DNA from: a virus
Taxonomy: Duplodnaviria; Heunggongvirae; Uroviricota; Caudoviricetes
IMG/VR virus record: IMGVR_UViG_2526164666_000046
Strand: one strand, 5' to 3'
DNA: 26,551 nucleotides
The position numbers and the translations under genes are program-made. Shown one piece after another: positions 1 through 23,233 of the stretch. The first letter of the stretch is position 1. Each line of letters begins with the position of its first letter. A model generated the notes under the pieces. The model saw only the letters and a program-made list of their open reading frames with translations. It was not told the DNA's origin and did not search any database.

Positions 1-90
1 CCCACCGCTGACGTGGTGTATGACACACCCGTTGTGATTTTTCCATCTGGTACATACCCCGTCTCCCGTTATCCGGAAGCTGACAACAAT

Positions 91-119
91 AAAAAAGCCA
101 CCAGTTAACTACTGATGGC
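91..119 (-). terminator. Putative rho-independent terminator downstream of the small late-region genes
   Basis: Minus-strand hairpin GCCATCAG-(7 nt)-CTGGTGGC (one wobble pair) at plus 97-119, followed immediately by U6 (plus A-run 91-96); lies 13 nt past the stop of the 132..404 gene. Confidence 0.4.
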
Positions 120-131
120 CCTGACTCCCCG

Positions 132-404
132 TTACAGCATCATGACCGATTCGGGTTGAGGTTCAGTCGCATCGGCGACCGGTGATTCAGGCTGAACTTC
201 ACCGCTCTCTGCGGTGGTATCTCCCGCTTCAGTCGGTGGCTCTGCCTGTACACCAAGCAGCTCATCCAGAATGGCATCAACCTCTGCATCAAGACGCGCT
301 TCCAGGTTATGGCGAAGTTTTTGTTCAGTTGCGCTCCGGACTTCTTCAGAGCGCAGGACTTCCTTCACTGCTTCAGCAGTGACCAGGGATGTAATTTCTG
401 ACAT
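132..404 (-). CDS. Small acidic hypothetical protein (90 aa, MSEITSLVTAEAVKEVLRSEEV...), lambdoid late-region accessory protein
   Basis: ATG at 404-402 inside the 132..578 track ORF; the upstream 58 codons of the track ORF overlap the neighbouring gene and look non-coding. Acidic Pro/Glu-rich C-terminus. No family assigned. Confidence 0.5.
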   Translation of the reverse strand: MSEITSLVTAEAVKEVLRSEEVRSATEQKLRHNLEARLDAEVDAILDELLGVQAEPPTEAGDTTAESGEVQPESPVADATEPQPESVMML

Positions 405-444
405 GGGATTTTCTCGTCGAAAGATGTGATTAAGAAAGTTGCCG

Positions 445-624
445 CTAAATGAGCGGCTCTTCGGGTTTGCTTCCGGCTGACTGACTGGCGCTGATTTTCT
501 CAGCGGCCCTTTTTGCAATCTGTCTGCGCCAGACGTCACGCATGGCCCGGTATCCACCCGAGAGGAGATACAGCACACAGACCACCGTACAGAAGTACAG
601 CATTAACTGGTTCAGAAATGTCAT
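445..624 (-). CDS. Small single-pass membrane protein (59 aa, MTFLNQLMLYFCTVVCVLYLLSGG...)
   Basis: Below the 60-aa cutoff of the ORF track; ATG at 624-622 with GGAAAG 8 nt upstream, stop TAG at 447-445; one hydrophobic helix followed by a basic tail. Function unknown. Confidence 0.4.
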   Translation of the reverse strand: MTFLNQLMLYFCTVVCVLYLLSGGYRAMRDVWRRQIAKRAAEKISASQSAGSKPEEPLI

Positions 625-722
625 AATTTCTTTCCGTTATTGTTGACAATAAGAACTGTTTTCATTAAAAAACCAGAGTACGAAAGTATCGTTCCTTTAT
701 TTTTTCTCCATAGGTATCACCA

Positions 723-758
723 CCGCCAGCGTCCATTCCTGTCGCTGGCGGTTTTTTT
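723..758 (+). terminator. Strong plus-strand intrinsic terminator (9-bp GC stem + T7) in a minus-strand intergenic gap
   Basis: CCGCCAGCG (723-731) / loop 732-742 / CGCTGGCGG (743-751) followed by TTTTTTT (752-758). Not usable as a minus-strand terminator (no U-tract on that side). Confidence 0.5.
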
Positions 759-759
759 A

Positions 760-1446
760 TCATGCCGCAGTGTCTGTGCTGTTCACTTCCACCGCAATGC
801 TGTCTATCAGTACCGGGTAAGTCGCACCTCTGGTAATGTCTGTCACATGCAGTTTATCCGCCGCAAAGGCACTGACCGGTGACTGCGTCAGCGTGAACGG
901 TGTGCCAACCTGACCATCAATAACCGGCGTCACCTGAAGGCTGTTATTCCCGGCAAAGCGGAAAGCCAGCGTATGCCATTCGTTATCAAATGCGCCAAAG
1001 GTTCCCAGTTTCAGGTTGTTTGTCGCCACTTTCGCATTGTGGTACATCACATTCAGGTCTTTTGCATCTGTCTGGATGTAGAACGCTGCCAGCAGGTTAT
1101 TCCCCCCGTCTCCGGTCAGGGCAACGCCCTGTGGCAGTGAAGATACCGGCCAGTAAAACGCCATAACATACTGGTTCGCAGCCAGCGCTCCCGAAACCTT
1201 AAAGCGGCAGCGAATCTGCCCCCCTTTCTGTAACAGAGCCGCACCGTTGCCCGCGGCGTACTCCAGCACCCAGCTGCTTTTACCGGCTTCCTTGGTCAGC
1301 TTCACTGCCTTACCTCCGGTTCCCTCCGCATCGCTGACCACTTCTGCCCTGCCGCCACTGGCTGACCATCCCTGTACTTTCAGGCTTCCCTCTGACTCGC
1401 TGGCAAGGTAAGAGAGCAGTGCTCGCGACGCCTGTGGCTTCTGCAC
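760..1446 (-). CDS. C-terminal domain ORF (228 aa), probably the displaced 3' portion of the upstream esterase gene; possible carbohydrate-binding domain
   Basis: Open frame with no ATG (the track 'M' is GTG; first internal Met near residue 94); overlaps the esterase frame by 67 nt; Gly/Ala/Thr-rich beta-type composition. The two-piece layout fits a frameshifted long esterase gene. Confidence 0.45.
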   Translation of the reverse strand: MQKPQASRALLSYLASESEGSLKVQGWSASGGRAEVVSDAEGTGGKAVKLTKEAGKSSWVLEYAAGNGAALLQKGGQIRCRFKVSGALAANQYVMAFYWPVSSLPQGVALTGDGGNNLLAAFYIQTDAKDLNVMYHNAKVATNNLKLGTFGAFDNEWHTLAFRFAGNNSLQVTPVIDGQVGTPFTLTQSPVSAFAADKLHVTDITRGATYPVLIDSIAVEVNSTDTAA

Positions 1447-2699
1447 CGGAAGGCGATGACGGGCGCACCTCTGATACTGTCGATGATGCCCCCGCGTTTA
1501 GCGCCACTCTTCCCGCATGGCGCAAAATCGCCGTTGCCAGGACGGCCGGAAATAATCCCGCGGCGAGCCCATGAACTGAAATGGCTCGCCCTGTCCTGTG
1601 ACGTCCAGGTGGCTGAGCTGTCACGCCATTTCGAACCGTAATATCCGATACCCGGAATGTCCGGGTCTTCTTCCGGTTTGTTCGTCGGCACATTCACCCC
1701 GTTCTCATCCGTCATGAACGGTACGAAATGGATATTCTTTTCCGTTTTGTTTTTGTAGCTGCCGTACACCGTCTGGTACGAGGATTCGTTCTTCTGCTTC
1801 CAGAAATACGTCGTATCTCCACATATCCAGGGAACACCGCCAGCAGAGCCACCGACGCACTGACCTGCCATATCCGCCAGGTCTGCACGGAATTTATCAA
1901 CCAGCGCACCAAACTGTGCTGCGTGATTTACCGGCGTACCGCCAAAATCAAATTCCCCCTGCATCCACACCACGGCAAACAGCACATTTTTCGGGTTCTT
2001 CTTCAGTGCTGCTTTTGTTCGACCGATAAGGTCCTTATACAGCGGCTTGTCCACACCCCAGCGGGTTGAATTCTCCGAGGCACCACTCGCGTCACTGTAT
2101 GTGCCATCGGCTCCGGTGGTGAACGCTGAACCACCACGACAGCACGGAACCAGCAGAATGCCCGCATTCGCCGGTATAAACGGCAGCAATTTTTTGGCGA
2201 TATGCAGCCCTTGCCCCACGGTTCCGTACTGCCCCTTTGACAGGTCCGCTTTCGGATGGTTAAGGCGGCTCATGTCCTGCACATCATGCAGACAATGGTC
2301 CGCCGGAATGATGTCGTTATATTTGCATGCTGCACCGCCCGGTGTCACCGTACTGCGGCGCGCCAGCTGCTTAATACGCGGGTCCGGACGGTCATATGTC
2401 TCCGGCAGCGGAAGGCCTTCACCATATGCCATGCTGTTTGACTGCCCCGCCAGAACCACAACAAAGTAATACTCCGTGTCTCTGGTGGCGCTGATTACTG
2501 TGCCTTCTCCATCCGACGGCTTCACCAACACAGGTGTGGTGACATCACCTTCCGCCGCAATGGCCTGCATCAGAGTATAAGGCGTGATGGCCACCGGACT
2601 ACCAAACGGCTGCCAGCCCTCTTTCAGTTTGTGTGTCAGCTTTTCCGCAAGGTCTGACGGCGACGCCGCCCTGACAACATCATAATGTTTAATCGACAT
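1380..2699 (-). CDS. DUF1737 + SGNH-type esterase, NanS-p-like sialate O-acetylesterase (prophage late-region accessory gene)
   Basis: ATG at 2699-2697 (MSIKHYDVVRAASPSDLAEKLTHKLKEGWQPFGSPV, DUF1737-like N-terminus) with GGGAG 8 nt upstream; esterase block VVVLAGQSNSMAYG (GQSN catalytic-Ser motif). The last ~80 codons (R/C-rich) look out of frame. Family assignment from memory of prophage NanS-p proteins. Confidence 0.65.
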   Translation of the reverse strand: MSIKHYDVVRAASPSDLAEKLTHKLKEGWQPFGSPVAITPYTLMQAIAAEGDVTTPVLVKPSDGEGTVISATRDTEYYFVVVLAGQSNSMAYGEGLPLPETYDRPDPRIKQLARRSTVTPGGAACKYNDIIPADHCLHDVQDMSRLNHPKADLSKGQYGTVGQGLHIAKKLLPFIPANAGILLVPCCRGGSAFTTGADGTYSDASGASENSTRWGVDKPLYKDLIGRTKAALKKNPKNVLFAVVWMQGEFDFGGTPVNHAAQFGALVDKFRADLADMAGQCVGGSAGGVPWICGDTTYFWKQKNESSYQTVYGSYKNKTEKNIHFVPFMTDENGVNVPTNKPEEDPDIPGIGYYGSKWRDSSATWTSQDRASHFSSWARRGIISGRPGNGDFAPCGKSGAKRGGIIDSIRGAPVIAFRCRSHRRREHCSLTLPASQREA

Positions 2700-2925
2700 C
2701 GAATTTCTCCCGTGTACAGGAACAGAGTTAAAAAGCGGAACCGGAATCAAATTACAGGATGGCCATCTGCCAGTGGCTGGTCGTAAAAAAAAGGCCAACG
2801 CCATGCGCAGCCGGAAATAAAGGGATAACGATGATAGTTTGAGAAAAACAGAAACAACACTTTTGTGGCAAAGCATGGTGCCGGGTGCCTCCCGGTGAAT
2901 TCAGTATCAGCACCTGAATCCGCGA

Positions 2926-3577
2926 TTATCCCATATACCTGGTTGCTGATCGCCCCTCCGCACAGGGGGATTCACCATGCAGTAGTATTTTTAATAAACA
3001 GTAAACAAAAAAATCAAGCATTATGCAGGCTGTTTCTTTTATCACCGGCCACAGCAATACCACAATGCCGCAGACCAGCACCCCATCCGCCAGCACCGAC
3101 ATGATTCTGCTGGTGAAATCCACCATCACCACCAGAAACAGCAGGAGTGCAGCCACAGCCAGGCGCAGTTTTACCGCACAGGTGATTCTCCAGACGAAGA
3201 CCCAGAACACCGGCAATCTCTTCCAGCACCTTGCGCTCTTCCGGCTCAATTTCGCCGTCTGCCTCCGCAATGGCCACCGCCACATCCAGCACATCTTCCG
3301 CTTCACGCGTATCGTGTTTCACATCCTCGATCTCACGTAACGCCGCACGACGTACCATTTAAGTTCGTATCCAGCTGACCGATAATGGTTGCGCTAATCG
3401 CATTAATTTCTGACGTAAACGCGGACAGCGCAGGCTGATTACGCAGTACCTGTTCGATCTTCGCTTTCTAGGAAGCCTCACATTCACCATCTGCACAGGC
3501 CACCAGGTAGGCAGCATTAATAACCGCCTGTGCCAGATCGCGTTTCTCAAACTTTCCTTTTTCCGGTTAACATGACA
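2926..3577 (-). pseudogene. Decayed TerB-domain (tellurite-resistance TerB-like) gene followed by a hydrophobic segment
   Basis: TerB-like sequence is split over three frames: ...KGKFEKRDLAQAVINAAYLVACADGECEAS, in-frame TAG (plus 3468-3470), KAKIEQVLRNQPALSAFTSEINAISATIIGQLDTN, frameshift near 3340-3358, VRRAALREIEDVKHDTREAEDVLDVAVAIAEADGEIEPEERKVLEEIAGVLGLRLEN, then another shift into a transmembrane-like stretch (2926..3306 ORF). No intact start codon. Confidence 0.5.
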
Positions 3578-3671
3578 TACCAATAACTCTTGTCTAAAAA
3601 GCCAGCAAGATAAAAAGCCAGTATTCACGACCACCAGCGTGTTTACTGTACTGCACAAGGTTTACAGGTAC

Positions 3672-3689
3672 AAAAAAACCGCTCAGCGG
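3672..3689 (-). terminator. Putative minus-strand intrinsic terminator (candidate tR'-like site)
   Basis: Minus strand reads CCGC-TGA-GCGG followed by U7 (plus A-run 3672-3678). Short stem, so low confidence. Confidence 0.35.
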
Positions 3690-3814
3690 CGGGTTTAAGT
3701 TGTGTGGCGAAGTAACCACTCTTAACACGATATAATACTTTTTGCGTACGCGTTAGGATTTTTATAAACTATGCGTCCCCATTCTCGCTATCTTTAGTCG
3801 GTCCTGGAATACAC

Positions 3815-4261
3815 ATGAAAGTTAGAAGCATAGGATTTACAATAAATAACAATAACAAAAATATTAATACCGTTGACGTAATGAATGCTTTTATCAACGC
3901 ATCAAACAGAGAACACAGTCGCACAGACTATACTCGTAAAATTCTCATTTCGGATGTGAATGATTTCTATTATGGATTAGTTGTCACATTCAGAAACCAA
4001 AAAAAGAACTGTAAGTCGCAATTTGTTGATGGTAAATTCCAGCTTAAAATTGAAGATCTTCAAGGAAGTGACAAACTTGCTAATTTCAACTTTTTCTTAA
4101 TTAAAAAATCTAATCTTTCTGGTCTCTATATGTATCACCACGGTTCATGCAGTCTGAACACTCTCTTTTCTCATTTAGAAACAATAAGTAATGAATTTAT
4201 CAGAAATCAAAATAAAGAAGAAATAAAAAACTTGGTGATAAACCAAAACAAAAAGAAGTAA
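3815..4261 (+). CDS. Hypothetical protein (148 aa), first gene of the AT-rich Q-proximal cargo cassette
   Basis: Very AT-rich ORF with Asn/Lys-rich composition; TATAAT-like box about 80 nt upstream. Its frame and the next ORF's frame are both open across an A6 run (4225-4230), so this may be the N-terminal part of a ~270-aa protein. Confidence 0.45.
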   Translation: MKVRSIGFTINNNNKNINTVDVMNAFINASNREHSRTDYTRKILISDVNDFYYGLVVTFRNQKKNCKSQFVDGKFQLKIEDLQGSDKLANFNFFLIKKSNLSGLYMYHHGSCSLNTLFSHLETISNEFIRNQNKEEIKNLVINQNKKK

Positions 4262-4305
4262 CTGCAATAAATAAAAAATACAAAGAAAGACTGACTTTCA
4301 GCCTT

Positions 4306-4629
4306 ATGACAAATAAAAACAACATTCAGAGTGTTTTATGTCAATTCAAAGAGATTAAAAGCACAAGCTTTAAATTTAATTATATAGATTTTAAAGGTGG
4401 ACCAATGACTGCGCTTGAACAATTTGTTAACACCACCACAATAGATATGAATTTTAATTCTAGCGACAGAACAAAAGTGCAACAACTATCTCAGAATCTT
4501 TCAAATATTTATAATTCTATGAGTGGAGTTGCTAAAGCACAGGTTATTGCAGTAAACCATGCAGGAATAGAAAAAACCATTGATTTTATGAACTGCCCTG
4601 TTTTTTTGAAACATACGATTTCGATATAA
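4306..4629 (+). CDS. Hypothetical protein (107 aa), possibly the C-terminal part of the preceding gene
   Basis: Weak RBS; its frame is open upstream to 4216 and overlaps the end of the 3815..4261 frame. Same composition as its neighbours. Confidence 0.4.
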   Translation: MTNKNNIQSVLCQFKEIKSTSFKFNYIDFKGGPMTALEQFVNTTTIDMNFNSSDRTKVQQLSQNLSNIYNSMSGVAKAQVIAVNHAGIEKTIDFMNCPVFLKHTISI

Positions 4630-4725
4630 TTGCCGATAAAGTCAATGGATTGACAAACGATAATTATACAACAAACCCTGTTTTTGATATGATAAAAGAA
4701 GAAATGCTGAACGGGACGAATAAAA

Positions 4726-5274
4726 ATGCCTTTATATGAATGGCTAATAAATAAAAGATTGAGGTATCAGTACCTTACACTGCTTGCATTCTCGATCCTG
4801 GCATTGCTTGCACTTTACCTATTGTACAGAAACACACCTAAAGTAAGTGTTAACTTTTTTGAGTTTTATCATAAAAACTTACGAGGCTATCTCTTCTCCG
4901 GTTTTATTTCCGTGGGCTCATTTTTATTGAGCCTGCATACCTTTGTCATAATAAATTTACGCGATAAGGTTTTTGCAACTCAGGAATATAAGGAAATTTA
5001 TAGCATTGCCACTGGTATACCTATTGACAAAATCAATGATAGTGTACTTTATAAACCTTTAGACAATTTATCCTCATTTATTAATACATCAATATTATGT
5101 TCTATCACAACAGCAATTGCACAATTCACTATTGGACTTTCAACTAATTTATATGCATGCTTATTTTGCGTATGGCTTGCAATACTAACGGTATTTCTTT
5201 TATTACATTGCCTCATCATAATCAGACAAAATATTAAAATTTTATTAAAGCAACAGAGAAAAAAAGGGGGGTAA
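4726..5274 (+). CDS. Four-helix integral membrane protein (182 aa), last gene of the cargo cassette
   Basis: Four hydrophobic segments (YQYLTLLAFSILALLALYLLY; LFSGFISVGSFLLSLHTFVII; ILCSITTAIAQFTIGL; LYACLFCVWLAILTVFLLLHCLIII) and a basic C-tail; stop lies in the loop of the hairpin at 5266-5281. Confidence 0.55.
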   Translation: MPLYEWLINKRLRYQYLTLLAFSILALLALYLLYRNTPKVSVNFFEFYHKNLRGYLFSGFISVGSFLLSLHTFVIINLRDKVFATQEYKEIYSIATGIPIDKINDSVLYKPLDNLSSFINTSILCSITTAIAQFTIGLSTNLYACLFCVWLAILTVFLLLHCLIIIRQNIKILLKQQRKKGG

Positions 5275-5288
5275 TTCCCCCTAATATT
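5262..5288. terminator. Bidirectional hairpin terminator between the convergent membrane-protein gene and Q
   Basis: GGGGGG (5266-5271) / TAATT / CCCCC (5277-5281), flanked by an A-run on the plus side (5259-5265), which gives U7 on the minus strand directly after Q. Confidence 0.5.
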
Positions 5289-5628
5289 ACAACATTGAAA
5301 GCACACCATCCAGAAAACCAAGAGCTGTTTGCAACTCTTTTCTTATTGTCCCATCAGAACACTTCTGCTTCTTTGCAATAGTTCTTAGTGAGATGCCGAT
5401 AACAAAATGAGCAATAACCAACTCATACTCTTCGGGCTTATATTTCCGCAATCGCGCAACACAGCTGTCAATCATGATTCCTTCATCATCATCGCATTGT
5501 TGGCGTGTTTTCTTTCCATGAGGTAGTAAACCTTTAAACCCTGCAGCAACAGGCTGCCAGTCCACACCACTGTTATCTGCTGCAGCCCATGCACCCCAGC
5601 GGTCCAATACTTCATACATATCACGCAT
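5287..5628 (-). CDS. Late-gene antiterminator Q (Phage_antitermQ family, QuuD-like)
   Basis: MRDMYEVLDRWGAWAA...VDWQPVAAGFKGLLP...QQCDDDEGIMIDSCVARL...IAHFVIGISLRTIAKKQKCSDGTIRKELQTALGFLDGVLSML closely parallels the remembered E. coli QuuD sequence. Start taken at the ATG at 5628; the track ORF offers 5643 as an alternative. Confidence 0.8.
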   Translation of the reverse strand: MRDMYEVLDRWGAWAAADNSGVDWQPVAAGFKGLLPHGKKTRQQCDDDEGIMIDSCVARLRKYKPEEYELVIAHFVIGISLRTIAKKQKCSDGTIRKELQTALGFLDGVLSML

Positions 5629-5645
5629 CAACTTTCTCCACAAAA

Positions 5646-6641
5646 TCAGGCCAGCACGCCAATTGCCAGTGCACGATCGATAAAACGAAATATCAGCTCC
5701 AGCTGGGAGCCATACTTCTCTTCAAATGCCACGGTATCCGCATGCAGCTCGTCGTGATGCTTTCTGCACAAAGGCAACACAAAGAGGTCATGCGCTTTTG
5801 TAGCCATTCCACCCTGACCGTGACCTATCAGGTGGTGGGGATCATCAGCAGGTTTTCCACAACATGCGCACGGCTGCGTCTTAACCCATCGCGTGTACTT
5901 TTCATTAACCCAGCGGCGACGTTTTGGGCGTAACATAAAAGACTCCGGCGACTCCGGATCCACTTTCAGCGCCAGCACCTTTTTCGCTTTATCCTGGATG
6001 ATGCTGGTGGCAGGAACCGAAGGCACAAGGTCACTTTCCCGGGTGACAGACGGCACAACAGGCTTCGGTAATCTCAGTACCTTACGGGCTGCACTTTCCG
6101 GTAAGGCATCCGCCAGATCATTACGAATCAGCCACCAGCACAGTTCCGGCATTGTCACAACGTGACTGTCATCAAAACCGAGATCCCGACGCACGACAGA
6201 CAACACCCAGCGGGCACAGTTATCCGTTGCCATTGATTCCAGCCGTTCCGTGAACTGATCGCGCAGCTGGTTATCGCAGTGCCAGCACAGACGGATTGCG
6301 CCCGGCGCGTGTCGCATTGTGGTCATGTTCTCGCTGTGCCAGTCGGAATGAGGCCACTGGCAGCCTTTTTCACGAAGTAACCAGCTTTCAAGACATTCCA
6401 CGCCACCAGCACGACGGATCACTGCCTCATTGCGGAACACGGCCCGAACGGCAGGATCATCCGCCAGCGGTTGTGATGCCGCCGGAACGGCACCACTGGC
6501 GAAAGATGAATAACGTTCCGGCTCAGGCTCCAGCAGGACACGCCCCTGCATAAACAGGGGCATCAGCTCTGAACCTGGCCTGAACAATACGATCCCCATA
6601 CGCGGGGCAATTTCAGGGGTCAGTAGCGCTCTCACGGTCAC
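5646..6641 (-). CDS. DUF968-family phage protein (YdfU-like) with HNH-like Cys/His cluster
   Basis: C-terminal QPCACCGKPADDPHHLIGHGQGG...LPLCRKHHDELH motif pattern; position just upstream of Q as in Qin-type prophages. Start uncertain (GTG 6641/6635 or ATG 6599). Confidence 0.6.
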   Translation of the reverse strand: MTVRALLTPEIAPRMGIVLFRPGSELMPLFMQGRVLLEPEPERYSSFASGAVPAASQPLADDPAVRAVFRNEAVIRRAGGVECLESWLLREKGCQWPHSDWHSENMTTMRHAPGAIRLCWHCDNQLRDQFTERLESMATDNCARWVLSVVRRDLGFDDSHVVTMPELCWWLIRNDLADALPESAARKVLRLPKPVVPSVTRESDLVPSVPATSIIQDKAKKVLALKVDPESPESFMLRPKRRRWVNEKYTRWVKTQPCACCGKPADDPHHLIGHGQGGMATKAHDLFVLPLCRKHHDELHADTVAFEEKYGSQLELIFRFIDRALAIGVLA

Positions 6642-10364: not shown

Positions 10365-11193
10365 GACGATGCCCTCCGCTGATATTCAGGAGACGGTGAA
10401 TATGAAAATTAGCCTTATCCGCCAGACGAATACGTTCAGCCTGCAAGTTAAGAAGGGTTTCTACCAGAACCTGATGCGCCTGCGGATCCGAAAGAGTTAC
10501 CTTGCGCAGAGCACGTAGTGCAGTTGTTACATAACTGAGTTTATGTAAGTCTTCATCATTCAGACGAGTGAGGGCTGGGGCAGTAGCCATGATGGCAGCC
10601 TCCTTGATCGGTGAAATACTTCCACCACCGGAAACGCCAATTTCGCTGGTGGTGAACTGAACGGGGTTGGCGTAACCGGTGATCAAGGAAACCGGCGCAT
10701 CTTTCGATGCCCCCGCCCAGCCCACCATAACTTTGATGTGAGCAAATGCGGACGATAAAAAAGACGCTGGCGCGTCATATATCGCCTTGATCAATTCCAG
10801 GACGCCAATCCCGGCACCCGCTTTATAAGGTGCCTGAACAGTGTAACGTCCCGGAATGGCAGAATCAATGTGCTGGTGGTCCTTCACACTCAACAAAATC
10901 ACGCCTGAATTTCCACAAAGGACTAAAGCACTCATGCGGGTAGTCTTTGCGAAGATAGATAACGCGCTGTGTTTCTGGCTCCCAACGAATAACATGGACA
11001 TAAAGCCCTCTTCCGTCACGAAACCAGCGGTTAAGTTCCTGCACAACTCGCCCCCCACAGTCAGGTAAAGTTCTCTGTGGTTACTTACAGCCAGGTGATT
11101 TGGTAATCTGCATTCATGCCGTAACAACAGGTGTTCAGCGACACTGACCACCAGCTGTTGCGACAAACGGTTATTTGCCGTTAAACTGTTCAT
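10357..11193 (-). CDS. Hypothetical early-region protein (278 aa), unknown function
   Basis: Long ORF in operon position between the YdaT-like gene and replication genes; GVSGGGS motif but no Walker A box; not assignable by eye. Confidence 0.45.
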   Translation of the reverse strand: MNSLTANNRLSQQLVVSVAEHLLLRHECRLPNHLAVSNHRELYLTVGGELCRNLTAGFVTEEGFMSMLFVGSQKHSALSIFAKTTRMSALVLCGNSGVILLSVKDHQHIDSAIPGRYTVQAPYKAGAGIGVLELIKAIYDAPASFLSSAFAHIKVMVGWAGASKDAPVSLITGYANPVQFTTSEIGVSGGGSISPIKEAAIMATAPALTRLNDEDLHKLSYVTTALRALRKVTLSDPQAHQVLVETLLNLQAERIRLADKANFHIHRLLNISGGHRHA

Positions 11194-12762: not shown

Positions 12763-12784
12763 ACCTGCTTCGGCAGGTTTTTTA
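12763..12784 (+). terminator. Intrinsic terminator after cI
   Basis: ACCTGC-TTCG-GCAGGT hairpin with a UUCG tetraloop followed by a T6 run, 13 nt after the cI stop. Confidence 0.6.
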
Positions 12785-18310: not shown

Positions 18311-18520
18311 GTGGGGCTGGATTGCGTACCTATATCAACCTACTGCCGCAACGCGGGAGAAACGGTTGATGCCGTTAACAAACGGATACAAAGAGGAATA
18401 TGGAAAGAAGGGGTACATGTATTAAAAGTCGACGGGGTTAAAGAGCGTTGGGTCGACTTAATAGAGGTTTCAAAATGGGCAAGAAAGAACAAGGATTATT
18501 ATCTCTGCCAAGAGGAGTAA
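18311..18520 (+). CDS. Excisionase-like protein (Xis)
   Basis: Small winged-helix-like ORF (…VDAVNKRIQRGIWKEGVHVLKVDGVKERWVDLIEVSKW…) immediately upstream of and overlapping the integrase gene; GTG start with GAGGTG RBS. Confidence 0.5.
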   Translation: MGLDCVPISTYCRNAGETVDAVNKRIQRGIWKEGVHVLKVDGVKERWVDLIEVSKWARKNKDYYLCQEE

Positions 18521-19650
18521 CTATTCGTAAGCATAAAACTGCTTCAACACTAGTTATCACTTTCACATATAAAGGGGTTCTTTGCAGGGAGCCCCTATCT
18601 CGGCTTGAGGCAAATACACGTGGTATAAAATATGCTGAGCGCCTGCTAGGGGAGATACAAAATCAGATCGCCAGCGGAACGTTTGAATATGCGAAATATT
18701 TCCCCAATTCCAAAAAACTGGAGTTATTCGGTGTAGTAAAGAAAACCAAAAATATTAAGTCCTATCTTGATGAATACCTGAAAATTTGCATAAACCGTAA
18801 TCTGTCGCCGTCAACCATTGGCGGTTACGAAAAATGTCTATCAGCACTATCAGAACTACATAAACTACATGTAACAGAATTGACGCCTGCGATACTAAAA
18901 AATTGGATAGCCAGCCGAAAAACTAAGCTGAAAACAATCAGGAATAACCTGTCATTTCTGCGCAGCGCCATTGATGAAGCTGTTACGGATGGCCTGCTGA
19001 CCATTAACCCGGTAACCCTCGTCAGCGCCAGCCGGTACCACGTGATCGACAGTAGCCCGAGCGCCGACGATTACGAGGTTGACCCGTTCACGCCAGCGGA
19101 GACCCTTGCCATTTACCAGAGCTGCAGGTACAGGGAATGGGAAAACCTGTTCCGCTTTGCTTTCAATACAGGTCTGCGGAGCTCAGAACTGTGCGCGCTG
19201 CGCTGGGCTGATCTCGACACCATCGCGAACACAGCCCACGTTCAGGCGGCCAGTGTCGTAGGGGTACTTAAAGGCACCAAGACAAAAGCCGGTACCCGTA
19301 AGGTGGAGCTGAACAGTGAGGCGCTGGCAGCCCTGCAGGCGCAGAAGCAATACACCTTTATGAAAAGTGAGTTCATATTCAGCGATCCGAAAACGGGAGA
19401 ACCCTGGACGAACGCCGACGCTATCCGTAAAAAAGCATGGGTGCCGACCCTGAAAAAAGCTGGTGTGCGCTACCGTAACCCGTACCAGACGCGCCACACA
19501 TTCGCCACCAGACACATTAGCCAGGGTGTAAACCTTTTCTGGCTTGCCGGGCAGATGGGGCATAAGGGGCCGGAAATGCTGTTCCGCAATTACGGTAAAT
19601 ACCTGGCTGAATACGATGGTAAAACGTCTATAAATGTTGTGTCAAGCTGA
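18475..19650 (+). CDS. Lambda-type tyrosine integrase with N-terminal arm-binding domain
   Basis: Catalytic-domain pattern ...LRSSELCALRWADLD..., ...RHTFATRHISQGVNLFWLAGQMGHKGPEMLFRNYGKYL (R..H..R..Y region); terminal position in the early-left operon after xis. Confidence 0.85.
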   Translation: MGKKEQGLLSLPRGVTIRKHKTASTLVITFTYKGVLCREPLSRLEANTRGIKYAERLLGEIQNQIASGTFEYAKYFPNSKKLELFGVVKKTKNIKSYLDEYLKICINRNLSPSTIGGYEKCLSALSELHKLHVTELTPAILKNWIASRKTKLKTIRNNLSFLRSAIDEAVTDGLLTINPVTLVSASRYHVIDSSPSADDYEVDPFTPAETLAIYQSCRYREWENLFRFAFNTGLRSSELCALRWADLDTIANTAHVQAASVVGVLKGTKTKAGTRKVELNSEALAALQAQKQYTFMKSEFIFSDPKTGEPWTNADAIRKKAWVPTLKKAGVRYRNPYQTRHTFATRHISQGVNLFWLAGQMGHKGPEMLFRNYGKYLAEYDGKTSINVVSS

Positions 19651-20009
19651 GTACATAGGCTTAAGGCTGATGAAAATTAAGAATGAGTCTACCATTGCTT
19701 TTTGTGAAATGAGCTATCATCTATGTTATTGATAGTTTCCATAGTTCATTTAGGTAATTGTAAATTTAATTAAAATCAATAACTTACATCATAGCAAGAA
19801 ATGGAGTGCAAATATATTTCTTGACTTCACGTAAGTTACTTTATTGCAATAAATTTTCACTAGGACAGTGCAAGGACACTGATAGTACTTGATGAGTCCC
19901 AGTACAAACTGTTATCCTGTGCTCCACAAATTCTAAAACTTTTATGTTTTTTTACTTTTCAAGAGCTTAACGTAGGTATCGGCGAAGCACCACAACTGGA
20001 GTGAACACT

Positions 20010-20048
20010 ATGAAAAAGACACTGACCGTAGGTTTCGGTGAAGGTTAA
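20010..20048 (+). other. 12-codon leader-type ORF (MKKTLTVGFGEG) with strong RBS
   Basis: GGAG at 19998-20001, 8-nt spacer, ATG 20010; followed 45 nt later by a hairpin + U-tract. Confidence 0.3.
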
Positions 20049-20093
20049 CTACAACCTAAAATTTTAAAACAAACCTCCATTAGCACAATAAGG

Positions 20094-20117
20094 CCTCCCA
20101 TGCGGAGGTCTTTTGTT
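20094..20117 (+). terminator. Hairpin + U-rich tail between the leader ORF and the membrane-protein gene (attenuator-like)
   Basis: CCTCC-CATGC-GGAGG followed by TCTTTTGTT; 16 nt upstream of the ATG at 20133. Confidence 0.35.
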
Positions 20118-20132
20118 ATAGGAATCAATAAG

Positions 20133-21041
20133 ATGGCGAGAACATTAGTCAACGTCAGCGCTACAATTTTTGCTCTAATGATGATTGTCAGAGCACTTTT
20201 TACTTATATCTACCCTGGAAAACTACCATTTAGCATCGCCATCATTGATTGGCTGATCGTCATTGCTGGTTCTGGTGCAGCAATATCTTCTATCTTCTGC
20301 TTCATCAAAAAACGCTATCCAGACACTGCAGAATTTCTTCCTATGTTCAGCACTGTTTGTTATGTGATTATCCTTATTGGATATGCAATTTTAAGGTACA
20401 CACCGGCCTATCAAACATCGCTTTCGATCATGGTTACAGGAATGCTCGTTGGAATGGGATGGTGGATACAATGCATAACGTCCGCTGCTAACACGCGCAG
20501 GTCCCACACGCTGAACATGATCATTAACACCCGAACAAGCCCGGAGTACCAAAAACAGCTTCGGAACAGCACCAAATTCTATCGGGGCATGCGTTATGTA
20601 CCACAAGAACTATCAGAGTGGCGCTGCAACCCAGACAAAGAAGAATACAAGAATATGAAGGTCCCCGATGAGTACAGGGATGCCATCAATGGCCTTTTAT
20701 ATATTCTTAATTATTTCGAGTTTCTTGCGCAGGGTATCAAGTTCAAGGATTTGGATGACGAATTACTGAGGGAGTGCTTCTCCAGCTTCTTACGCGGGAT
20801 AGAACGTCGTGGCTTCCACATGATCTTAGAGTCTCAGAAACAGGACCCTGCAGCCTTTGAAGGAATAATCTACCTTTCAAAAAAATGGAACGGAACATCG
20901 TTTGTTGAAACCCACCGTTCCAACCCTAATACGGTTGAGCTCGGGGTTCCATATCCTTCAAACGATATGGTTGAAAAAATGGTTCAAGGTCAGCCGTTAA
21001 TAGATAGCGACGCAGGGCCGGAACTTCAAGTGGCCACTTAA
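20133..21041 (+). CDS. Membrane protein: four N-terminal TM helices + ~170-aa cytoplasmic C-terminal domain (303 aa), unknown function
   Basis: Start taken at MARTLVNVSATIF (20133), not the track's 20100; four hydrophobic segments, then a soluble domain with no recognisable motif; AT-rich island between two integrases. Confidence 0.5.
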   Translation: MARTLVNVSATIFALMMIVRALFTYIYPGKLPFSIAIIDWLIVIAGSGAAISSIFCFIKKRYPDTAEFLPMFSTVCYVIILIGYAILRYTPAYQTSLSIMVTGMLVGMGWWIQCITSAANTRRSHTLNMIINTRTSPEYQKQLRNSTKFYRGMRYVPQELSEWRCNPDKEEYKNMKVPDEYRDAINGLLYILNYFEFLAQGIKFKDLDDELLRECFSSFLRGIERRGFHMILESQKQDPAAFEGIIYLSKKWNGTSFVETHRSNPNTVELGVPYPSNDMVEKMVQGQPLIDSDAGPELQVAT

Positions 21042-21143
21042 TCTCGTTGTATGGACCAAGAGAGGACCAGAAAATGCACTCAAAATGCACTTGAGGCATT
21101 TTAAAACAGAGAATGCATTGTTATTCAATGGGTTAAGCATTGC

Positions 21144-21175
21144 TCGGGCACGGGTTCAACTCCCGCCAGCTCCAC
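21144..21175 (+). other. tmRNA (ssrA) 3'-end-like fragment, probable att core of ssrA-targeting integrative elements
   Basis: TCGGGCACGGGTTCAACTCCCGCCAGCTCCAC matches my memory of the E. coli ssrA 3' end (...TCGGACGCGGGTTCAACTCCCGCCAGCTCCACCA) with a few mismatches; followed by T5 and a hairpin + T6 at about 21210-21246; no upstream tmRNA body. Confidence 0.55.
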
Positions 21176-21339
21176 TTTTTAGTTGTTTGAAGTTCAATGA
21201 AGTCTACTAAGCCCACACAGCACAAGCTCTGCGGGCTTTTTTACGTCTATTGTCGTCCAGTGAGAATTGCTGAGAACTACGAGTTATGGCACCCTGAATG
21301 GGACCCACTAAGAAGGGTCCAAAAACCGAGGGTCCCAAA

Positions 21340-22560
21340 ATGGCAAAAATCGCTAAGAAGCTCACTGACACTGAAATCAAAAGCACCAAGCCAGCCGATA
21401 AAGAAATCAACTTGTTTGACGGTGATGGTCTGATTCTACGAATCGCTCCTTTGGCGAAAGGAGGCAAGAAAAATTGGTATTTCAGGTATGCAGTACCCGT
21501 GAGCAAGAAAAGAACCAAAATGAGCCTTGGGACATATCCTCACCTTACCCTTGCAAGAGCCAGAGCCTTACGTGATGAATATCTCTCCTTTCTGGCAAAT
21601 GGTGTTGATCCCCAAATCCATAACAACGATAAGGCGAAGGCATTAAAGAGTGCTACTGAGCACACTCTCCAAGCCGTAGCGCGGAAATGGTTAGATGAGA
21701 AGGTAAAGACATCAGGTATCTCACAAGACCATGCAGCAGACATCTGGCGCAGCTTAGAGAGAAATGTCTTTCCCGGTCTGGGTAATGTCCCTATCCGACC
21801 TAAGCTCTTAAAACAACACCTTGATCCTATTGAGCAACGAGGCGTATTGGAAACTCTACGCCGTATCATTTCACGTCTGAATGAAATCTTCCGGTGGGCA
21901 GCTACTGAAGAACTTATTGAGTTCAACCCGGCTGACAACCTTGGTCAAAGATTCAGTAAACCAAAAAAGCAAAATATGCCTGCCCTTCCCCCAAGCGAAT
22001 TGCCAAGGTTTATGGAATCTTTGACGAATGCGTCAATCCGGTTGGAAACACGTATGCTAATTGAATGGCAATTGTTGACATGGGTTCGTCCGGGTGAAGC
22101 CGTTCGCGCAAGGTGGTCTGATATTGATACAACCAACAGCATTTGGAACATTCCTGCTGATTTCATGAAAATGAAAAAGCTTCACAAAGTTCCTTTGAGT
22201 AAAGAAGCTTTGCGCATCCTTGAATTAATGAAATCAATAAGTGGGCATAGAGAATGGGTTTTCCCCAGCATAAAAGCGCCTCTTAATCATATGCATGAAC
22301 AAACAGCCAACGCAGCTATCATCCGAATGGGGTTCGGAGGCGAGCTTGTAGCTCACGGTATGCGTTCTATTGCACGAACAGCGGCAGAGGAGTCTGGTAA
22401 ATTCAGAGCTGAAGTTCTTGAGGCAGCGCTTGCCCACTCGAAAAAAGATGAAATTATCGCAGCATACAATCGTGCAGAATATCTGATAGAGCGACAGAGT
22501 TTGATGCAATGGTGGAGTGATTACGTTCAAGCTCAAAGATCAAATGCTCTGGTAGCCTAA
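21340..22560 (+). CDS. P4-type tyrosine integrase (IntA/CP4-57-like)
   Basis: MAKIAKKLTDTEIKSTKPADKEINLFDGDGL... closely parallels the remembered IntA N-terminus; C-terminal HGMRSIARTAA...ALAHSKKDEIIAAYNRAEYL catalytic region; RBS GAGGG 8 nt upstream of the ATG at 21340. Confidence 0.85.
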   Translation: MAKIAKKLTDTEIKSTKPADKEINLFDGDGLILRIAPLAKGGKKNWYFRYAVPVSKKRTKMSLGTYPHLTLARARALRDEYLSFLANGVDPQIHNNDKAKALKSATEHTLQAVARKWLDEKVKTSGISQDHAADIWRSLERNVFPGLGNVPIRPKLLKQHLDPIEQRGVLETLRRIISRLNEIFRWAATEELIEFNPADNLGQRFSKPKKQNMPALPPSELPRFMESLTNASIRLETRMLIEWQLLTWVRPGEAVRARWSDIDTTNSIWNIPADFMKMKKLHKVPLSKEALRILELMKSISGHREWVFPSIKAPLNHMHEQTANAAIIRMGFGGELVAHGMRSIARTAAEESGKFRAEVLEAALAHSKKDEIIAAYNRAEYLIERQSLMQWWSDYVQAQRSNALVA

Positions 22561-23233
22561 GTATCAGAATAGCTAATATAATCCTGAAGGTAAAGAAAAT
22601 GGAAACCCTATTCAAAGTTTTTGAAAAATTTAGTTCCAGACCACTTTTTTTATTTTTTTCGGACTCTCACTTTGTGAATTTTTTCAGAAACAATCTGTTC
22701 TGATGAATCCATCAGCAGATAACATCGCGAAATTATTCGCAGCCATGATATTAGTTGTTTTTTTACTTGGGGATTTGAATGGCTAATCTTCAAGTTCAAT
22801 GTAAACCTTGAACCTCATGATCAAGGCGATATTGGACCAACAATTGGAACGGCTACTTTAGCTGTATACTTAGTTTATGCCTTTCACTTTCTCAGTGAAA
22901 ATCCTGAAGCATTAAATTTAAAGTTATTAACTAACTCTGGCTTTATATACAGCACAACTCTATTATTATTCTCATTAGAATGCATGAAGCTTAGAAGACT
23001 TAAACAAAAATAAACAACATCATTGTGATGATAAATATAAAATAGGCATGGCGAAAAAAAATCACCACGCCTAAAATATAATAATTATGGTAGCATCATT
23101 GATACATAATCCACACCAATCCTTGAGCTATACTGAGACGCTATAGCCTGATATCTTTCTGCATAACCAGTTCTCAGTTGAGATTTAAGTTTGAGTCGGA
23201 CAGGAACATTTTGCACGTTGCCATCCATATTAC

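Follow-up and report, generated by a model that had tools for sequence, protein, structure and literature searches.

A TerB-family prophage pseudogene with two shared lesions and additional frameshifts that are probably draft-sequence artefacts

Described relatives of the terB locus

Among the described systems closest to the locus analyzed here is the tciA-tciB(-tciC) group of phage P1, in which a TerB-like protein is followed directly by a small hydrophobic protein. The function of P1 tciA and tciB is assigned "by homology" only (GenBank AF234172.1), and we found no experimental work on the TerB-DUF3927 (tciA-tciB) pair in the searchable literature. The nearest solved structure is that of Klebsiella TerB (PDB 2jxu), which belongs to the terZABCDE operon. 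[quoted passage not shown] Finally, PGAP has annotated pseudogenes of a "tellurite resistance TerB family protein", for example C6997_RS27195 (NZ_CP027577.1) and I3U_RS22145 (NZ_CP028126.1), at the same locus in lambdoid prophages of STEC/EHEC strains.

We compared these systems with a stretch of 26,551 nt, referred to below as the window. As in the P1-type module, the TerB-like gene is followed directly by one for a TciB-like protein of about 55 aa, and in relatives the two overlap. Over its full length TciA shares 41% identity with the lambdoid TerB protein (both about 141-143 aa), and TciB, which like its counterpart has 54-55 residues and is encoded directly after the TerB-like gene, is 58% identical over its core. 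P1 and the full-length lambdoid alleles also share the placement of these accessory genes beside tRNA genes. The difference is that the P1 genes are intact, whereas the TerB gene of the window is dead. The similarity to Klebsiella TerB is more distant in sequence: both belong to the PF05099 domain family (2jxu, E=4e-8), but the phage gene described here stands by itself, paired with DUF3927, and is not a member of a ter operon. These PGAP pseudogenes have the same neighbours (Q, the AT-rich cassette, DUF3927, esterase and lysis genes), the same amber codon and the same 5' truncation as the window, with no substitutions across the interval of interest; the window alone carries six private indel positions.

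The tRNA genes merit a separate description. In the full-length alleles a cluster lies between Q and TerB, about 170-420 nt upstream of TerB, and reads Ile-Arg-Arg in L009 and L011 and Ile-Arg in L008. No tRNAs were seen at L010, which also has a full-length amber allele, or at the window-type allele. The P1 tciABC genes are likewise flanked by tRNA genes.

A TerB remnant inactivated by two shared lesions

The original prediction placed TerB-like sequence in the interval 2926-3577 and spread it over three reading frames. We identified the TerB/TciA-family remnant at 3177..3554 on the minus strand, where it corresponds to codons 18-143 of an intact 143-aa protein; tblastn, Pfam and the pseudogene annotation of orthologous loci all support this assignment. 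When an intact 143-aa orthologue (P0001, beginning MFGIFKKKTRRASAEIKKFEKRDLAQAVINAAYLVAYADGECEASEKAKIEQ...) was compared with the window by tblastn, it matched in two frames (1e-59). Residues 18-83 aligned to 3554-3357 with 94% identity, and residues 86-143 aligned to 3352-3179 with 100% identity. A three-frame translation of 3720-2880 gave the same picture. The N-terminal part of TerB lies in one frame, as KFEKRDLAQAVINAAYLVACADGECEAS, the stop, and then KAKIEQVLRNQ...DTN, and the C-terminal part lies in a second frame, as RRAALREIEDVKHD...GLRLENHL. The third frame encodes the hydrophobic peptide KLRLAVAALLLFLVVMVDFTSRIMSVLADGVLVCGIVVLLWPVIK, which is not TerB but DUF3927, the product of a separate downstream TciB-like gene. 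TerB therefore occupies two frames and not three, and the description of its product as membrane-associated arose from merging TerB with this separate small hydrophobic protein.

We considered whether the TerB similarity could be a chance match in non-coding DNA. The single fragments do score weakly, as a spurious match would: the N-terminal fragment alone falls under the Pfam cut-off (E=0.017), and the C-terminal piece alone reaches 30 bits. The joined translation, however, scores 42.1 bits against PF05099 over profile positions 2-109 of 118 (cut-off 24.4, E=1.2e-10), compared with 60 bits for P0001 itself. The 94% and 100% identities to P0001 also speak against chance, as do the hundreds of intact homologues of 142-144 aa that a protein search recovered from E. 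coli, Klebsiella, Salmonella, Serratia and phages, and the match of the intact orthologue to PHROG 632 ("tellurite resistance", moron class) at E=2e-69. We dismiss a chance match, and the TerB similarity named in the original prediction is real. The locus thus scores above the gathering threshold of the family, while lacking the start codon and uninterrupted reading frame of a functional gene. No second, intact TerB copy was found in the window by tblastn. An intact 192-aa TerB call (cluster P0010) is on a different contig, JAHCEY010000244.1, which is 88% identical to the window over 510 nt.

Two lesions of the remnant are shared with finished genomes. One is the amber codon of the original prediction, a TAG at 3468..3470 (minus strand, read 3470-3468) in place of the GAG for Glu46. 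In an alignment of eight alleles, TAG was present in the window, L002, L003, L008, L010 (O157:H7) and L011, and GAG was present in the intact alleles L009 (WP_001303558.1) and L004. The amber codon is also present in the finished locus L001, and L001, L002, L003, L008, L010 and L011 are all annotated by PGAP as pseudogenes with an internal stop. These six finished amber alleles showed no further disabling lesion. A 63-mer around the TAG was 100% identical in at least 521 records from 5,426 complete E. coli genomes, with matching strains of serogroups O157, O26, O103, O111, O121 and O145 among them; the GAG 63-mer of the L009 type was 100% identical in at least 297 records from the same genomes.

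The other shared lesion is at the 5' end, where a mosaic junction at 3555..3578 (minus strand) has replaced codons 1-17 and the start codon with non-homologous sequence. Homology to the full-length alleles begins at AAAGTTTGA, that is, at Lys18. Upstream of it the unrelated sequence reads ATG-TCA-TGT-TAA (3578-3567), so the sole upstream ATG (3578-3576) runs into a TAA (3569-3567) three codons on, which agrees with the earlier remark that no intact start is present. A 141-nt query over the junction was at least 80% covered in 477 of the 5,426 complete E. coli genomes. The truncation is common to L001, L002 and L003 only; L008, L010 and L011 retain the full 5' end. Since these three alleles are full-length and carry the amber codon, the amber change is independent of the truncation and most simply the earlier of the two. 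Only about 3 of 429 nt separate the intact L009 allele from the amber L011 allele, which indicates that the nonsense change is young or has been spread by recombination.

The sequence upstream of the junction belongs to another module, that of a Q antiterminator and two AT-rich genes. Segment 3561-3720, the 160 nt upstream of the junction, travels with the Q module, recurs without TerB in many genomes, and in L012 is attached to other cargo. Because this upstream module is joined to different cargo elsewhere, we regard the truncation as a typical lambdoid mosaic junction. At the tail of the Q module, upstream of the TerB remnant, a consensus scan alone identified a terminator-like hairpin, GCCGCTGAGCGG followed by T7, at 3678..3690 (minus strand). 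A promoter scan of 2700-5700 found 8 sites compared with 7.8 expected in shuffled sequence, and we claim no promoter in that region.

Both lesions recur in independent assemblies (at least 521 amber records and 477 genomes with the junction), and the combination of the amber at codon 46 with the replaced start and codons 1-17 is shared with L001, L002 and L003. These observations identify the locus as a pseudogene of the TerB family rather than a working member. Judged from sequence, the TerB gene is dead in this prophage lineage through two inherited lesions. The call of a genuine pseudogene in the original prediction is upheld by the amber codon and the 5' truncation; it gains nothing from the frameshifts, which are private to a draft contig. 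The pseudogene was also already known, in that PGAP/RefSeq marks the locus "pseudo, internal stop".

Private indels near the end of a draft contig

The frameshifts of the original prediction have a different distribution. At 3353..3361 (minus strand) a cluster of indels, in which AACTTTAAAATTGGTCGTCG becomes AACTTAAATGGTACGTCG, causes a net -2 frameshift in TerB; it consists of TTT->TT, AAAA->AAA and TT->T together with one inserted base. This frame change is present in the window sequence as deposited. At 3176..3177 (minus strand) a 1-nt deletion takes out the A of the GTGACG in which the stop of TerB and the start of DUF3927 overlap, so that TerB loses its stop and the start frame of DUF3927 is truncated. 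A third lesion, at 3036-3040, shortens an A5 run to A4 within DUF3927. The earlier statement that the frameshifts are not at homopolymers therefore applies to the deletion at 3176/3177, and does not apply to the 3353-3361 cluster, which is largely made up of runs, or to the A5 run.

Comparison with orthologues in related prophages separated these lesions from the amber codon and the truncation: the latter two are shared, and the frameshifts are private to the window. An 841-nt region compared with L001 and with L003 had no substitutions and the same six indel positions in both comparisons, and even its best match differs at all six. The 3353-3361 cluster was absent from 2,002 TerB copies in 750 complete genomes (best identity 94.6%), and none of the private lesions was shared by any of the 5,426 complete E. 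coli genomes. In the gene index, the ORF created by the frameshifts (3014-3358, 114 aa) is on exactly one contig, AIGQ01000065.1. The frameshifts were thus not reproduced in another sequence, and they probably reflect sequence quality.

Private indels are a feature of the whole window and not of TerB alone. Over its 26,551 nt the window is 99.90% identical to L003; substitutions number 7 and indel positions 20, and most of the 27 differences (20) lie within the first 4.6 kb. Beyond 4.6 kb we found only 2 substitutions and 5 one-base contractions of T7/T8 runs. Of the 25 homopolymers of at least 7 nt, 7 have lost one base relative to L003, and no run has gained any. At every private position in 1-4607, two independent relatives, L001 (an O26 strain) and L003 (strain 2013C-4225), have the same sequence and the window departs from both. 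The five single-base insertions, at 329, 1424, 1540, 2797 and 3353, fall outside the homopolymer pattern.

About nine genes are hit by private indels and are otherwise identical to their relatives, and some of them lie to the right of the prophage integrase genes. In addition to TerB, these are the genes for the holin (1 deletion), the esterase (2 insertions), DUF3927 (2 deletions), a 308-aa hypothetical protein (2 deletions), a 138-aa hypothetical protein (2 deletions), a response regulator (1 deletion) and an ATP-binding protein (1 deletion); in DUF826 a -1 and a +1 change compensate each other. Compared with the finished relative, the one-base T7/T8 contractions are at 12777 (intergenic), 22644, 22757, 23256 and 25839, and the last four frameshift the genes for the 138-aa hypothetical protein (twice), the response-regulator receiver and the ATP-binding protein. 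Local scrambles private to the window were also seen: a TG/GT swap at 514-515, a -1/+1 pair 4 nt apart at 325-329, and, at 1424-1426 and 1540-1546, an insertion followed by a substitution within 2-6 nt. These scrambles look like consensus errors rather than mutations.

The position of the window on its source contig is consistent with such errors. The window (1-26551) is identical to positions 2-26552 of AIGQ01000065.1 (GCA_000250015.2), a draft WGS contig of 393,537 nt that breaks off within the holin gene, in a prophage late region present in multiple copies. The interval of interest is 3-3.6 kb from this contig end, and parts of the late region occur in up to 16 copies per genome. A pattern that is dominated by indels, biased to homopolymers, concentrated at a contig end and found in many otherwise identical genes argues for sequencing error over mutational decay. 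The deletion at 3176/3177 and the five insertions require a second error mode, for example low coverage or mixed paralogous reads. TerB itself carries little weight here: real additional indels would be unsurprising in a pseudogene that is not under selection, and so the case for artefacts rests on intact neighbouring genes having been hit in the same way. We consider it very probable, on this circumstantial evidence, that the private indels are sequencing or consensus artefacts. On this view homopolymers would have been under-called and short stretches scrambled over the first few kilobases of a WGS contig that ends inside a multi-copy prophage repeat, and the true sequence would then have TTTAAAATTGGTCGT at 3353-3361, an A in GTGACGG at 3176/3177, and A5 at 3036-3040.

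Our preferred explanation for the whole, to which we give a probability of about 85%, is that TerB was inactivated by the two shared lesions and that the private indels were added by sequencing or assembly. Its main competitor is the original prediction, in which all lesions are real, TerB and the esterase are decaying and the prophage is cryptic or degenerating. The lesions are literally in the deposited sequence, a TerB gene that was already non-functional could accumulate further neutral indels, and the 3176/3177 deletion and the 3353 insertion lie outside homopolymers. Decay of this kind is nevertheless hard to reconcile with the excess of indels over substitutions (6 to 0 in the interval, 20 to 7 in the window), with a systematic -1 contraction of long homopolymers that is never balanced by expansion, and with the simultaneous frameshifting of about nine genes in sequences otherwise identical to those of relatives. 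It must also accommodate lesions that are absent from every complete genome searched and fall at a draft contig end, and a relative whose prophage is nearly complete. We judge it improbable. The frameshifts, which had been taken as biological, are on this circumstantial evidence better read as assembly errors.

The "esterase junction" that had been cited for decay comes from two private single-base insertions, at 1424 and 1540, in a 645-aa gene that is intact in the nearest relatives, and the esterase, DUF3927 and AT-rich genes are all intact in the nearest finished relative. The prophage of that relative is at ssrA, carries espK, espN and nleL, and has a full tail, head, terminase and lysis complement with only the portal gene flagged as frameshifted (annotated at L014 30560-33144, NZ_CP027577.1). 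Moreover, TerB is an accessory (moron) gene, and a dead copy is uninformative about prophage viability. We conclude that a cryptic or decaying prophage does not follow from these data.

A different objection to our preferred explanation accepts the amber codon and holds that the amber allele of terB is still in use, by readthrough, by re-initiation that yields a C-terminal fragment, or as an RNA leader for DUF3927 and the sRNA. The TAG allele is indeed very common, as its 63-mer records indicate, and the six finished amber alleles lack other disabling lesions. DUF3927 is intact downstream in 6 of 6 finished amber loci, with a GGAG 8 nt before its GTG start, and the STnc100/PasD sRNA is directly downstream in the window. 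For the window-type allele, however, readthrough has no substrate, because the start codon and the first 17 codons are absent. No in-frame ATG is present past the TAG, and we saw no suppressor tRNA: amber suppression by phage tRNAs was considered and rejected, as the tRNAs upstream of the full-length alleles in L008, L009 and L011 are Ile and Arg. The intact and amber alleles are about 3 nt apart, and youth and spread by recombination explain the missing decay without selection. Continued use of the amber allele is thus less probable still than decay of the whole prophage; if it were true, amber terB would be more than a neutral relic spread by prophage recombination.

The accessory module and its history

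The genes that follow TerB are better preserved in the lineage. The DUF3927/TciB-like gene (3014..3179, minus strand; about 3126-3017 by tblastn) encodes a small hydrophobic protein of 55 aa; relatives have an intact version, WP_000216636.1. In PGAP-annotated relatives it overlaps the end of the TerB pseudogene, with a GTGA joining the TerB stop and the DUF3927 start; in the window this overlap is damaged by the private 1-nt deletion, and DUF3927 is broken solely by that deletion and the one in the A5 run at 3036-3040. The GGAG motif upstream of its GTG start was read from the sequence. The fragment in the window still scores 57.7 bits against PF13064 (cut-off 25, E=1e-15), well within the family, and the L003 copy scores 62.3 bits (E=4e-17) and matches PHROG 1470 ("TciB-like", moron class) at E=4e-30.

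Directly after the DUF3927 stop and upstream of the esterase is an sRNA gene (2837..3009, minus strand) that matches RF02076 over the full model (positions 1-206 of 206) and scores 103.4 bits, where the gathering threshold is 47. The gene reaches into the interval originally given to TerB, so that 2926-3009, at the 3' end of that interval, are sRNA and not TerB. The copy is identical to that of L003 over 2837-3009. Its full-length model match and its place directly upstream of the sialate esterase, the place of pasD, are the points of likeness to STnc100/PasD, and it probably belongs to this prophage sRNA family, among whose named variants are STnc100, PasD1 and PasD2. The sRNA gene is a neighbour of the TerB pseudogene and not part of it.

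On the minus strand the order of features is Q (5287-5643), an AT-rich cassette on the opposite strand, the hairpin, the TerB remnant, DUF3927, the sRNA, the esterase, DUF1378, DUF826 and the holin. The esterase (760..2699, minus strand) is a SASA/DUF1737/DUF6645 carbohydrate esterase of 645 aa in relatives and is split in the window by the private insertions at 1424 (C) and 1540 (G). The AT-rich cassette (3815..5274, plus strand; 28-35% GC) is convergent with Q and has two genes, which encode proteins of 308 aa and 182 aa in relatives; in the window, contracted A7 and T8 runs (4224 and 4600) interrupt the first. The module to which this cassette belongs supplies the junction that truncated TerB. 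Searches of the cassette genes gave no Pfam, PADLOC or NCBIfam match and, for the 182-aa protein, no PHROG match; the 308-aa protein matches PHROG 2802 (function unknown).

Several further observations were made in and around these features. Phages mEp460_4F5 and vB_EcoS-569R4 encode the 308-aa protein with 100% identity, and the 182-aa product resembles a multi-pass membrane protein. Located between Q and the late-region terminator, the cassette has the position and composition typical of an accessory insertion or a candidate defence insertion. In the early region, Rfam identified a C4 antisense RNA (10645-10732, minus strand, 82 bits) beside an isrK Hfq-binding RNA (10757-10833, minus strand, 64 bits), which is the c4/isrK immunity-RNA arrangement of the P1/P7 type within a lambdoid prophage. 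At about 18480-22570 of the window (L003 20481-21656 and 23346-24566) there are two integrase genes with a DUF4760 gene between them; after these come response-regulator and ATP-binding genes and an IS3 element. This arrangement points to a second integrative element next to the prophage.

In our preferred explanation, the interval holds the tail of a lambdoid-prophage accessory module in late-operon orientation, made up of TerB/TciA, the overlapping DUF3927/TciB and the STnc100/PasD sRNA, with the Q antiterminator module on one side and the sialate-esterase and lysis genes on the other. The ancestral pair may have been a lysogen-benefit or late-expressed accessory module, in which a soluble TerB-domain protein acted with a two-helix membrane peptide. 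By homology only, to P1 tciA/tciB and to the ter operon, the ancestral function may have been tellurite or colicin resistance or the inhibition of phage or of cell division.

We propose that the TerB gene was disabled in two steps. A G->T change turned the GAG of Glu46 into TAG, giving an allele that spreads through recombination between STEC prophages of several serogroups. A later module-shuffling junction displaced the start codon and first 17 codons and also imported the Q gene, the AT-rich two-gene cassette and the terminator segment. We infer this order, amber first and truncation second, from comparison of the alleles.

Taken together, the apparent decay of TerB, DUF3927, the esterase and several other genes in this window most likely represents draft-assembly indel errors, which makes the sequence unfit for dating pseudogenisation or for calling the prophage cryptic, and any other "pseudogene" call in the window merits equal suspicion. 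The biology that stands is modest and already recorded in RefSeq: a shared amber codon and a mosaic junction have inactivated an accessory gene, terB/tciA, in a lineage where only DUF3927 and the sRNA may still be functional.
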